From sequence record OR702609.1: 5,490 nt of DNA. One strand, given 5' to 3'. Origin of the DNA: Escherichia phage MG1. The translations under genes were made by a program, and so were the position numbers. Below the pieces are notes generated by a model that was not told where the DNA came from, did no database searches, and worked only from the letters and a program-made list of their open reading frames with translations. Of this stretch, positions 1 through 5,432 are shown in pieces (position 1 is the first letter of the stretch; every line of letters starts with the position of its first letter).

Positions 1-1635
1 ATGTCTGTAGAATTAGTAAAACCACTCGTCGAAGCTGCTGGCATGTCGACACTTACACAATCCCCAAACCTCCGTATCTGGAAACAGGTAAACACTCGCG
101 TAAAATTACTTGAAGAAATTCTTGCTCACTGGACAAACGGAATCCGTCGCTGCCCTGAAACTCAAGACTTCTACATGAACCCAAATTCTCAATTGGCTAC
201 TACTATTGCCTATCGTGCCCATCAAAAAGGACACAACCCAAAACTCATTCAATACCCTGACACATTTACTCTCGACGACATTATTCGCCGTAAACCAATC
301 CCTCAAACTGCCCCTAACGAATTACGCCTCTCTGATGAAATCGGTGAGGATTACCGCCTTACAGTCATCGCCATTGCTGACGAACTGCAAGAATGTTACG
401 ACGTGCTCGAACAACTTGATATTAATAACACTATAGACCACACCCCTAAAGGTAACGCCCATTGGAGTATGCTTTATGATAAACCTGTTAACACCCATTG
501 GTCACAGCTCGTATCTAAACGACCCCTTAAAGATATCCGCGCCGATTACAACTATGCAAAGGCGAAGGGTATTAAGGATGAATGCTCAAAAATGCTTGAG
601 GAATCCACCATGAAATCAAGACGTGGCTTTACCGTTCAAAGATTGATGAATGCTATGCGCCAAGCCCACACTGATGGTTGGTATGTTGTATTCGACACTC
701 TTACTCTGGCCGATGATCGCATACAGGCTTTCTATGATAATCCCAATGCTCTTCGTGACTACTTCCGTGATATTGGTCGTATGGTGCTTGCTGCCGAGGG
801 TCGCTCTGCTAATGACTCACACGCCGACTGCTATCAGTATTTTTGTGTTCCAGAGTATGGCACACAGCACGGTCGTCTACATTTCCATGCAGTGCACCTT
901 ATGCGCACACTTCCTCTGGGTTCTCGTGACCCTAACTTCGGTAAGCTGGTACGCACTAATCGCCAAATAAATAGCTTGCAAAACACTTGGCCTTACGGCT
1001 ACTCTATGCCCATCGCAGTCCGGTACTCGCAAGACGCATTCTCGCGTTCTGGTTGGCTCTGGCCTGTCGACTCAAAGGGTGAACCCCTTAAAGCTACCTC
1101 GTATATGGCTGTCGGCTTCTACGTCGCTAAATACGTCAACAAAAAATCTGATATTGACATGGCCGCAAAAGGCCTAGGGAATAAAGAATGGAACGCATCA
1201 CTCAAGACCAAAATATCTCTCCTACCAACCAAACTATTCAGAATCCGAATGTCCCGCAACTTCGGGATGAAGATGTTATCAATGGCGCACCTGACCGCCG
1301 AAACATTAATCCAACTGACCCAACTGGGCTACGACTCGACCCCGTTCAACAACGTTTTGAAGCAGAACGCCAAGAAAGAGCTGAAATCGAGGCTGGCAAA
1401 AGCATCTGTCGCGACCGTTTTGGCGGCGCAACCTGTAACAACGAATCTGCTAAAATTTATGCGCGATTTGACCCGAACAATCGGAGCGTCCAACCTGCAG
1501 AATTTTATCGCTTCAATGACTCAGAAATTAACACTCATGGATACTTCTGATGAAACCAAAAACTACCTTGCTGCTGCAGGCATTACTACTGCTTGCTTAC
1601 GAATTAAATCGAAGTGGACTGCTGGTGGAAAGTGA
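1..1635 (+). CDS. A: Replication initiation protein A (rolling-circle HUH endonuclease), 544 aa
   Basis: Long ORF from ATG at 1 to TGA at 1633-1635. Strong similarity to phiX174 protein A from about residue 120 onward. HUH motif HFHAVH at 880-897. Paired catalytic tyrosines in [10 protein letters not shown] (Tyr codons 1120-1122 and 1132-1134). Contains the 30-nt origin at 412-441. N-terminal ~100 aa diverge from phiX174. Confidence 0.93.
412..441 (+). other. Viral (+) strand origin of rolling-circle replication; protein A nick site between G418 and A419
   Basis: Exact match to the conserved 30-nt microvirus origin CAACTTGATATTAATAACACTATAGACCAC as I recall it from phiX174/G4, located inside gene A. 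Confidence 0.85.
610..1635 (+). CDS. A*: Protein A* (in-frame internal initiation within A), 341 aa
   Basis: In-frame ATG at 610 (MKSRRGF...), at the position I recall for phiX174 A*. GAGGA at 598-602, 7 nt upstream. Predicted length 341 aa equals phiX174 A*. Expression not provable from sequence. Confidence 0.6.
977..1005 (+). promoter_or_regulatory. Candidate promoter pB (inside gene A, upstream of B)
   Basis: TTGCAA at 977-982, 17-nt spacer, TACTCT at 1000-1005 (4/6 to TATAAT). Position is about 185 nt upstream of B, roughly where phiX174 pB lies. Weak hexamers. Confidence 0.25.
1188..1550 (+). CDS. B: Internal scaffolding protein B, 120 aa
   Basis: ORF in an alternative frame wholly inside A. 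ATG at 1188 with AGGGA about 9 nt upstream. Same length as phiX174 B, with conserved C-terminus ([26 protein letters not shown]). Confidence 0.9.
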
Positions 1636-2474: not shown

Positions 2475-3761
2475 ATGTCTAATGTTCAAACTTCTGCCTC
2501 TCGTGATGCAATTGATTTATCACATCTGGTCTTCAACACTGGCGCTATTGGTCGCCTTAAAGTCGCGTCATGGACTCCTGTTGTCGCTGGTGATTCTTTC
2601 CAGCTTGACGCTGTTGGTGCTTTACGCTTATCCCCTCTGCGTCGCGGCCTGGCTATTGACTCAACTGTTGATTACTTCACTTTCTACATTCCACACCGTC
2701 ATATCTATGGCGATGCATGGATTGAATTTATGAAAACTGGCGTTGCTGCCACTTCTCTTAACCCTGTAACTACTGCAGCCTATGTTGACGGCGCTTCTTA
2801 TCTTGGTGTTATTCCTTCTGCTGACAACAAGGTTCCTAAGTTCCTGCATCAAGGCTATCTCAATATTTATAATAATTACTTCAAAGCACCTTGGATGGCT
2901 GACCGTACTGAGGCAAACCCATCTAACTTAAATGATGATGATCGTCGTCATGGCTTCCGCTGCTGTCACTTAAAAAATATTTGGTCTGCGCCTCTTCCTC
3001 CTCAGACGGAAATTACCCGCGCTATGACTACTGGTGCTACTTCCATTGACATCATGGGTCTTCAAGCTGCTTACGCCCAACTTCACACTGACCAAGAACG
3101 TGACTACTTCATGCAACGTTACCGTGACGTAATCTCTTCGTTCGGTGGCAAAACTCACTATGACGCTGACAACCGTCCTCTTTTGCTTATGCGCTCTAAC
3201 TTCTGGGCTTCTGGCTATGACATTGACGGTACTGACCAAACTTCATTAGGTCAATTCTCTGGTCGCGTCCAACAAACTTTCCGCCACTCTGTTCCTCGCT
3301 TCTTCGTACCGGAACATGGCGTTATTATTACTCTTCAACTTGTACGCTTCCCACCTACCTGTACTGAGGAAACTCACTATCTCGTTGGCAAAGGAGCACT
3401 AAACTATACTGACCTCGCGGGTGACCCTACTCTTTACGGTAACTTACCTCCTCGCGAAATCGAAATGAAAACTCTCTTCCGTGGCGCTGCTGGCTCTACT
3501 GAAAAAATCAAAATTGCCGAGGGGCAATGGTATCGCTATCATCCTTCTTACGTTGATGGACAATATCACAACCTCCAAGGCTTCCCGTTCATCCCAAATG
3601 GTCCAACTGGCAACATGGAAAACCGTGTACTGATTGACCATAAAAAATATGACGAATGCTTCCAGTCACTTCAATTAACCCATTGGAATGCTCAAGCTAA
3701 ATACAATGTCACTGTATATCGACACATCCCGACTACTCGTGATAGCATCATGACTTCTTAA
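2475..3761 (+). CDS. F: Major capsid protein F, 428 aa
   Basis: ATG at 2475 with AAGGA about 8 nt upstream. Near-colinear with phiX174 F (MSN.QT, DLSHL, ALRLSPLRRGLAIDSTVD, QGYLNIYNNYFKAPWM, RTEANP, GFRCCHLKNIW, ERDYFMQRY, RDSIMTS). Confidence 0.97.
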   Translation: MSNVQTSASRDAIDLSHLVFNTGAIGRLKVASWTPVVAGDSFQLDAVGALRLSPLRRGLAIDSTVDYFTFYIPHRHIYGDAWIEFMKTGVAATSLNPVTTAAYVDGASYLGVIPSADNKVPKFLHQGYLNIYNNYFKAPWMADRTEANPSNLNDDDRRHGFRCCHLKNIWSAPLPPQTEITRAMTTGATSIDIMGLQAAYAQLHTDQERDYFMQRYRDVISSFGGKTHYDADNRPLLLMRSNFWASGYDIDGTDQTSLGQFSGRVQQTFRHSVPRFFVPEHGVIITLQLVRFPPTCTEETHYLVGKGALNYTDLAGDPTLYGNLPPREIEMKTLFRGAAGSTEKIKIAEGQWYRYHPSYVDGQYHNLQGFPFIPNGPTGNMENRVLIDHKKYDECFQSLQLTHWNAQAKYNVTVYRHIPTTRDSIMTS

Positions 3762-3773
3762 AGCCTATAACGT

Positions 3774-3810
3774 GACAGGGGGAAAAATTTTAATTTTTCG
3801 CCCCCTGTCA
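3774..3810 (+). other. F-G intergenic stem-loop (candidate TF terminator and/or complementary-strand priming site)
   Basis: Perfect 9-bp GC-rich stem: TGACAGGGG (3774-3782) with CCCCTGTCA (3802-3810). It encloses AAAAATTTTAATTTTT, itself self-complementary (AAAAA/TTTTT). The same A/T core occurs in the phiX174 F-G intergenic region. Confidence 0.55.
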
Positions 3811-3860
3811 GGTTGAACAAGCGCAAGCGCGTTAGCTGCCTAACTACAAGGACTACTCAA

Positions 3861-4385
3861 ATGTTTCAGAACTTTGTTACTAAACACAATTCTCCTCAAT
3901 TTACTACTACTATCACAAAGGCCGTCACTCCCGCCGCGTTGGCTCCTGTTATTAATACGCCAACCGCTGCGCGTGGCAATCTCTTTGTGAACCTAACTAC
4001 TACCGCCCTAACTTCTCCGGGCGGTATCTCTGCTGTTGTCGCTATTGACAACTTTTCTCGTACCGACAATCAGGTTATTTCTATTGCTGCCTCTCTTTCT
4101 ACTACTGGCAGTCTAGTACCTGTTCTTTGTCGGTTTGAATCTGCTGCTGTACCAACGGCTATTCCCGCATCTGCGGTTACTTACTATCCGTTGGACTTTA
4201 CATCATCTGCTACCGCTCTGTCCGTCAAGGACTGCGCTACTGTCTCTACTCTTTCTCGCTCTGGCAATCCTGTTTATGTAGGTATTGCCCTTATTGCGAA
4301 ATCATTTACCGCCGGCACTGTATACGGCTCTATCTCAATTAATCAGGTTGACCAAGAAATCACAACTCTGCAACCTCTCAAATAA
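3861..4385 (+). CDS. G: Major spike protein G, 174 aa
   Basis: ATG at 3861 (MFQNFVTKHNS...) aligns with the phiX174 G N-terminus (MFQTFISRHNS); AAGGA about 10 nt upstream. Conserved motifs CRFES..VPT, VKDC.TV, NPVYVG, LQPLK. The track ORF starts at an upstream TTG (3813) that I consider non-genuine. Confidence 0.9.
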   Translation: MFQNFVTKHNSPQFTTTITKAVTPAALAPVINTPTAARGNLFVNLTTTALTSPGGISAVVAIDNFSRTDNQVISIAASLSTTGSLVPVLCRFESAAVPTAIPASAVTYYPLDFTSSATALSVKDCATVSTLSRSGNPVYVGIALIAKSFTAGTVYGSISINQVDQEITTLQPLK

Positions 4386-4394
4386 GGAATCTCT

Positions 4395-5432
4395 ATGTTT
4401 GGTGCAATCGCTGGCGGCATCGCCTCTACTCTTGCTGGCGGTCTAATGTCCAAACTGATGGGCGGCAATAAACAAGCCGCCCCCTCAACTCCCGGACAAG
4501 GCCTCTTCGCTACCCCTGAAGCTACTATCTCTGCTGATAATGCAGGTATTCAATCTGTTATGCAGGGACCCAACCCGCCTGGTCCTGACCAAGCGGCTCC
4601 TTCATTTACCGAATCTGCCGTCTCCTCACTTAAGGATGCTGGCAAAGGACTCCTCGATGGTACTCTACAAGCTGGCGGCTCTGCTGTTCAACAAGCTCTT
4701 CTTAACAAAATTGGCCTCGGTGGCAAATCTGCTTCTGATAAAGGCAAGGATACTAAAGATTACCTTGCTGCTGCGTTCCCCGAGCTCAACCCGTGGGAAC
4801 GCGCTGGCGCTGGTGCTTCCTCTGCTGGTATGGTTGACGCTGGTTTTGAAAACCAAAAACAATTAACCAAGATGCAACTTGACAATCAAGTCAAAATCGC
4901 TAAGATGCAAAACGACACTCAGAAGGATATCGCTGGTATCCAGTCTGCCACATCACGCATGAATACCAAGGACTCTGTATATGCTCAAAACGAAATGCTC
5001 CAATACAACCAAAAGGAATCTATGTCACGTGTTGGCGCTATTCTCGAAAACACAAGCCTCACCAAACAGCAACAAACTTCTGAAATTATGCGGCAAATGC
5101 TTACTCAGGCTCAAACCTCAGGGCAACACTTTACTAACTCTCAAATCCAAGAACTTACTCGAAAAGTCGGTGCTGATATTGATGCTGTTCGTGCTAACAC
5201 TGAACGCACCCATGTAGAAACTGACCGCTCAAAACAGGAAGTCCAAAACTCACGTTACGCATCATCACAGGTCGGTAAAACCGCCAAGGACGTATCAAAT
5301 GTCATTAGTGACGCATCTTCTGGTATTGTTGATTATTTTCGCGGCGTTGATAAAGCTGTGGCTGACACTTGGAACAATTATTGGAAAGATGGTAAAGCCG
5401 ACGGAGTAGGCTCCAACATGTCTCGCAAATAG
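4395..5432 (+). CDS. H: DNA pilot (minor spike) protein H, 345 aa
   Basis: ATG at 4395 with TAAGGA overlapping the G stop. Gly-rich hydrophobic N-terminus [16 protein letters not shown] as in phiX174 H. Long conserved blocks ([83 protein letters not shown]). Confidence 0.95.

Follow-up and report, generated by a model that had tools for sequence, protein, structure and literature searches.

In phiX174, DNA is cleaved and religated at G4305/A4306, inside the 30-nt ori+, and the A protein carries two catalytic tyrosines (Tyr343 and Tyr347) together with a metal site made up of His263, His265 and Glu254 (bioRxiv 10.64898/2026.07.25.740675). The same study lists nine detrimental synonymous mutations from A residue Q107 to D115, attributed to ori+, and, on the basis of an AlphaFold 3 model, proposes a wedge formed by Phe455 and Phe471 that enters the AT-rich segment of ori+ (bioRxiv 10.64898/2026.07.25.740675). 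HUH initiators with two tyrosines follow a rolling-circle scheme with re-initiation (review PMC5714925; bioRxiv 10.64898/2026.07.25.740675), and the A protein is cis-acting (PMC3606162). The phages of the Lilleput group, which came from Danish wastewater with E. coli K-12 as host, were placed in Gequatrovirus by their describers (PMC7552041).

Here we analyse the genome of Escherichia phage MG1 (OR702609.1); the whole stretch of 5490 nt is referred to as the window. An earlier interpretation made from the letters of this DNA (the sequence-only reading) had proposed that a perfectly conserved 30-nt replication origin lies at 412–441, within a gene A that has diverged from that of phiX174, with a nick at G418/A419. 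We conclude with high confidence that 412–441 is the viral (+) strand origin of a G4-like microvirus (Bullavirinae). The element is a textbook phiX174-type origin, carried by a newly isolated member of a phage group described earlier, and in this sense it is already known. Its comparison across lineages bears on which parts of the origin are fixed and which are free to change.

Results

Genome organisation and relatives of MG1

The window is a complete G4-like microvirus genome with all genes on the + strand, and the list of open reading frames gives the single-strand order A(A*,B,K)-C-D(E)-J-F-G-H. The closest record in GenBank, Lilleput (MK629525, also 5490 nt), is 96.4% identical over 100% of the length, followed by Lilledu, lillemer, Lilleto, Lilleen and SECphi17 at 93–96% identity, and by ID2, ID18, G4 and PJNS002 at about 79–83% identity across 72–86% of the window. 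The features by which Gequatrovirus is recognised, namely a size of about 5.5 kb, a one-strand gene order and close nucleotide similarity, are all present in MG1. Matches to the known genes identify B (1188–1550, +), K (1550–1714, +), E (2064–2351, +; beginning MAHWTLSGILAFLLLLSL...) and J (2344–2430, +; MAKGKSYRRGSAGNKKGSRLWYVGGSQF). The A* frame (610–1635, +) begins at an in-frame internal start, Met204 (MKSRRGF...), which aligns with Met173, the A* start of phiX174, and with the annotated A* CDS of G4, ID2 and ID18.

Annotation of the related records is sparse in places: just six CDS are annotated for Lilleput and its origin is unmarked, and the viral-strand origin is unannotated in all the G4 and Lilleput-group GenBank records that we examined. 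The SECphi17 record (L011, LT960607, 5538 nt) is linear, has coordinates that begin outside the gene A start, and contains the 30-mer at position 154 as well as two copies of its first ten bases; the record may include a duplicated end left by circular assembly.

The F–G intergenic region of the window (3762–3860) can be aligned well to that of ID2 and, with lower quality, to those of ID18 and PJNS002, but it does not align well to the G4 region annotated in RefSeq as primer RNA and complementary-strand origin. At about 3772–3814 it holds a long hairpin that is GC-clamped and has an AT-rich loop; a small GC hairpin comes after it, and this hairpin region may be regarded as a candidate (−) strand origin of the clade to which MG1 belongs.

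The initiator protein encoded by gene A

Gene A (1–1635, +) encodes a rolling-circle initiator of the HUH endonuclease type and contains its own origin. The 544-aa product belongs to Phage_GPA (Pfam PF05840, E=1.1e-59), and alignment places its HUH motif, His294-Phe-His296 (880–888, +), opposite phiX174 His263/His265, Glu285 opposite Glu254, and the catalytic tyrosines Tyr374 and Tyr378 (YVAKY; 1120–1134, +) opposite Tyr343/Tyr347. Both tyrosines are invariant in a protein alignment of six lineages. Thr233/Thr235 and Arg292 are also kept, and the MG1 protein has every residue singled out in phiX174.

Over its length, the A protein is 99% identical to that of Lilleput, 85% to that of G4, about 66–73% to that of phiX174 and about 44% to that of alpha3. 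Residues 5' of the 30-mer share 40% identity with phiX174 (89 aligned) and 20% with alpha3, and those 3' of it share 79% and 48%, respectively. The description of gene A and its N-terminus as diverged therefore holds against phiX174 and alpha3, but not within the G4-like clade of MG1 itself, where gene A identity is 82–99%.

A single exact copy of the phiX174 viral-strand origin

The 30-mer CAACTTGATATTAATAACACTATAGACCAC has one exact match in the window, at 412–441 on the + strand, and a search of both strands of the window with up to three mismatches gave no further match. None of 200 dinucleotide-preserving shuffles of the window matched it. Since the origin is present in a single copy per genome at this tolerance, termination is expected once per round. 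The element is identical at 30/30 positions to phiX174 (NC_001422, 4299–4328) and G4 (NC_001420, 500–529), and the same 30-mer is present in ID2, ID18, PJNS002 and Lilleput, in the last of these also at 412–441. Two phage records contain it with one mismatch. The sequence-only reading allowed that the 30-nt consensus it used might depart from the true origin at several positions; this consensus equals the sequence of both phiX174 and G4, and its placement as a unique, exact match at 412–441 is confirmed.

The 30-mer begins on a codon boundary of the 544-aa frame and covers codons 138–147 of A, which align in frame with phiX174 A Q107–H116 on the same strand and in the same codon phase. As in phiX174, the 30-mer and all genes share one strand. 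The phiX174 RefSeq record places a rep_origin feature, labelled 'origin of viral strand synthesis', at 4306. Since this is base 8 of an identical 30-mer, the phiX174 cleavage site G4305/A4306 maps to G418/A419, and by analogy we infer that MG1 DNA is nicked between these two bases, as had been proposed.

Constraint on the nucleotide sequence beyond coding

Gene A was aligned by codons in the window, PJNS002, ID2, ID18, G4 and phiX174 (six genomes), with alpha3 and ID21 added for a set of eight. In the six-genome alignment, the longest invariant nucleotide run of the gene is the 30-mer itself, with edges at exactly 412 and 441; 51% of gene A columns are invariant in this set, and runs of at least 30 would be expected about 3e-6 times under independence. 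All ten third-codon positions of the 30-mer are invariant, against 34% of third positions overall in six genomes and 19% in eight, and synonymous alternatives exist for each of the ten codons. The phiX174 residues Q107–D115, at which the detrimental synonymous mutations lie, correspond to the first nine of these codons; the list does not extend to the tenth, which ends in position 30.

The conserved block stands out from its surroundings. In a comparison by blocks of 30 nt, the 30-mer matches phiX174 at 30/30 positions, the block before it at 20/30 and the block after it at 16/30; against alpha3 the corresponding values are 28/30, 7/30 and 10/30, so that the divergence around the origin described by the sequence-only reading is borne out at the nucleotide level. 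At the codon next to the origin on its 5' side (409–411), the window has GAA (Glu137), whereas Lilleput, PJNS002, ID2, ID18 and G4 have GGA (Gly), phiX174 has CCC and alpha3 has GCC. Since this codon differs among phages, the left edge of the conserved block is sharp; the GAA codon adjoining the origin is a change private to the window. Taken together, these comparisons show constraint on the nucleotide sequence of 412–441 beyond its coding role.

Elsewhere in gene A, the second-longest invariant run spans 22 nt (1604–1625, TTAAATCGAAGTGGACTGCTGG), in the overlap of the A, K and C frames near the start of gene C.

Two fixed modules and a variable spacer

At 99% identity or above, the full 30-mer was found in 543 phage records, all of them microviruses (megablast, 28-base word size). 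Since most of these are laboratory lines of phiX174 and ID11, they represent few independent lineages. Variation appears beyond the phiX- and G4-like phages: all alpha3-like genomes carry CAACTTGATAATAGTAACACTATAGACCAC, with T>A at position 11 and A>G at position 14, giving the spacer ATAGTAA. Both substitutions fall on second-codon positions and turn Ile-Asn into Asn-Ser.

A profile search of IMG/VR with A proteins returned 23 loci encoding an A relative. In 20 of the 23, the locus is alpha3-, G4- or phiX-like and has the origin, on contigs already known from a pattern scan. The three most distant loci lie on contigs of about 5.48 kb, two of them GC-rich, and encode A proteins 33–50% identical to that of MG1; they carry CGACTTGATAATACATGCACTATAGACCAT or CAACTTGATATATTAGGCACTATAGACCAA in frame at the homologous place. 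A fourth distant lineage, with CGACTTGATATAAAATACACTATAGACCAG, came from the pattern scan; as the motif itself led to it, it adds no independent evidence. The distant Bullavirinae-like contigs, L246 (IMGVR_UViG_3300020043_006353), L247 (IMGVR_UViG_3300020045_012296), L248 (IMGVR_UViG_3300030243_000404) and L249 (IMGVR_UViG_3300020045_001231), are about 4.9–5.5 kb long, with 53–55% G+C in three of the four, and their A proteins span the same 33–50% identity to that of the window. Their spacers are ATACATG, TAAAATA and TATTAGG, position 2 is G, and position 30 is T, G or A. A further metagenomic locus, L023, has the exact 30-mer although its A protein is just 53% identical.

The earlier description of the element as invariant thus applies across the phiX- and G4-like phages, but alpha3-like phages have two changes in the spacer and the distant metagenomic lineages have seven origin substitutions. 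Across all origin variants, positions 3–10 and 18–29 are fixed, A or G occupies position 2, and all four bases occur at position 30 (441 in the window). The 30-mer can accordingly be divided into a recognition decamer, CAACTTGATA (412–421, +), which would contain the nick at G418/A419 and whose positions 3–10 are the same in 5/5 variants; an AT-rich 7-nt spacer, TTAATAA (422–428, +), the sole internal segment that differs between lineages; and a right-hand module, CACTATAGACCA (429–440, +), fixed in all lineages found, among them the three that came independently from protein homology. The spacer is always 7 nt long and occurs in five versions (TTAATAA, ATAGTAA, TATTAGG, TAAAATA and ATACATG), each constant within its own lineage. 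The right-hand module is presumably the duplex-binding part, in line with the older phiX174 literature. The pattern of fixed and variable positions matches the division of the origin into three parts in work of the 1980s: the recognition sequence, in which the cut lies, the AT-rich spacer, and a sequence for binding that is required on duplex DNA.

The residues corresponding to Phe455 and Phe471 are Phe in phiX- and G4-like A proteins and non-aromatic in alpha3-like ones. Co-variation of the spacer with these two residues was considered and rejected: L023 combines TTAATAA with Gln455, and L249 combines another spacer with Phe471.

Secondary structure and additional decamer copies

Folding of 382–471 as single-stranded DNA gave z=-1.6, which is not significant (11/200 shuffles fold equally well), and a hairpin at the origin was therefore rejected. 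The lack of significant structure is in keeping with an origin that works without a stem-loop, in contrast to most sites of HUH initiators.

One copy of the decamer with a single mismatch, CAACTTGACA, lies at 4875–4884 (+) in gene H and is the only near copy on the + strand. It is common to the window, Lilleput and PJNS002 and absent from G4, ID2, ID18, phiX174 and alpha3; it is compatible with chance, and we rejected it as a functional second decamer. The contig of L023 (IMGVR_UViG_3300005306_000004) has a second exact decamer, CAACTTGATA, at 3066–3075 (L229), directly past the gene J stop codon and just 5' of the J–F terminator hairpin. In phiX174, a partial copy, ACTTGA, occurs at 986–991, 3' of the equivalent hairpin, and this position is an extra-origin A/A* cleavage site (PMC3606162). 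Nothing comparable to that site was found in the J–F region of the window.

Matches outside microviruses

The 30-mer is absent from all 5,426 complete E. coli genomes searched. Matches in bacterial genome assemblies span many phyla and are overwhelmingly phiX174: among genome contigs, all 121 share 99% identity or more with it across about 800 nt around the origin, and the same is true of 75 of the 82 metagenome matches. Contigs of about 5.4 kb that are phiX174 at 99% identity or above (L109–L228) occur in assemblies of unrelated bacteria and an archaeon, for example Phaeobacter, Clostridium and Methanoculleus, and six 5386-bp 'plasmids' with the 30-mer (H166–H171) are recorded for Vibrio, Cellulomonas, Edwardsiella and E. 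coli. The phiX174 matches in bacterial genomes, in 'plasmids' and in most metagenome contigs are sequencing spike-in contamination. An origin outside the microviruses was therefore rejected, the element being absent from complete E. coli genomes and the bacterial matches being phiX174.

Discussion

Selection on an essential A peptide, with no DNA element involved, would account for part of the pattern, since the peptide is largely kept even in distant lineages as [QR]LD..xTID[HQ] and some amino-acid constraint is possible. However, coding constraint does not predict that 10/10 third positions are fixed against a background of 19–34%, nor that synonymous changes at the equivalent phiX174 codons are detrimental (bioRxiv 10.64898/2026.07.25.740675). 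Moreover, the alpha3 changes are non-synonymous (I>N, N>S) and confined to the spacer, which implies that the protein is more tolerant of change than the DNA modules are, and we consider an explanation by coding alone very unlikely. The AT-rich centre of the element is superficially promoter- or UP-like, and origin and packaging functions coincide in phiX174, such that packaging is part of the role; one could thus envisage a role in mRNA structure, as a promoter or as a packaging signal in its own right, in place of a nick site. Such a role is still less probable, given that the single-stranded DNA has no significant structure (z=-1.6), that bipartite conservation around a free spacer of fixed length fits a site of protein binding and cleavage, and that cleavage in phiX174 has been mapped to this very sequence.

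Contamination by phiX174 is widespread in sequence databases, and the identity with phiX174 could in principle reflect an assembly that is chimeric with spike-in reads, or a patch acquired by recent recombination. Yet the in-frame 30-mer is shared by Lilleput, Lilleto, SECphi17, PJNS002, G4 and ID2/ID18, which were sequenced independently, the block of identity is exactly 30 nt with non-phiX flanks and so lies far below read length, and an equally sharp block is seen in L023, with its A protein at 53% identity. The probability that remains for a chimera or patch is close to nil. The proposal that 412–441 serves as a replication origin, by comparison, is supported by its identity to the experimentally defined ori(+) of phiX174 and by its position in the gene of a Phage_GPA protein that has the catalytic residues.

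As a viral-strand origin, the 30 bp at 412–441 would be bound by the A protein on the supercoiled replicative form, and the + strand would be cut at G418/A419, with Tyr374 or Tyr378 becoming joined covalently to A419 at its 5' phosphate. This would leave a free 3'-OH on G418 as the primer for rolling-circle synthesis, in which Rep helicase and DNA polymerase III of the host would take part. When one round was complete, the regenerated origin would be cut by the second tyrosine and the ends joined by the first, which would yield a circular + strand and allow re-initiation. Both RF replication and the packaging-coupled synthesis of single strands in late infection would start in this way. The cut position, the covalent chemistry and the host factors in this scheme are extrapolated from phiX174 and G4 biochemistry. 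The cis action of A fits the location of the origin inside its own gene.

MG1 resembles phiX174 ori(+) in 30/30 nt, in strand, in codon phase and in an initiator family with an HUH motif and two tyrosines. It differs in that its origin lies 411 nt into a gene for a 544-aa A protein, compared with 318 nt into that for the 513-aa protein of phiX174, and in that the A residues upstream of the origin are just 40% identical. G4 and the Lilleput group (Gequatrovirus) share the identical 30-mer with MG1 and differ in the codon 5' of it (GGA for Gly, compared with GAA for Glu137 in the window). With alpha3 and St-1 (Alphatrevirus, CAACTTGATAATAGTAACACTATAGACCAC), MG1 has in common the decamer, the right-hand module, the 7-nt spacer length and the frame, and it is set apart by the two spacer substitutions that give Asn-Ser instead of Ile-Asn in alpha3. 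The origins of geminiviruses and circoviruses, the pT181/pC194 dso and the Ff gpII origin likewise depend on a site-specific nick by a tyrosine of their own initiator, a covalent 5' link and priming of the leading strand from the 3'-OH (PMC5714925). Unlike these HUH origins, the present nick site has no stem-loop and is embedded in the coding sequence of the initiator, and unlike other HUH initiators, A has two catalytic tyrosines and re-initiates without inactivation (PMC5714925).

The MG1 origin raises no new question about replication. Its value for annotation is that the viral-strand origin can be placed at 412–441, with the nick at 418/419, and it provides an example of a DNA signal that constrains synonymous sites within a gene, which is relevant to recoding, to engineering and to estimates of dN/dS for gene A. 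A mildly new point, of a comparative nature only, is that the pattern of two modules and a spacer holds where the initiators are just a third identical. It is conceivable, if rather doubtful, that the origin is built of two fixed modules and a lineage-specific 7-nt spacer which A proteins may read in a sequence-specific manner. In this scenario, the Bullavirinae would be split into initiator–origin compatibility groups that limit cross-replication in co-infection, and MG1 would belong to the phiX/G4 group.
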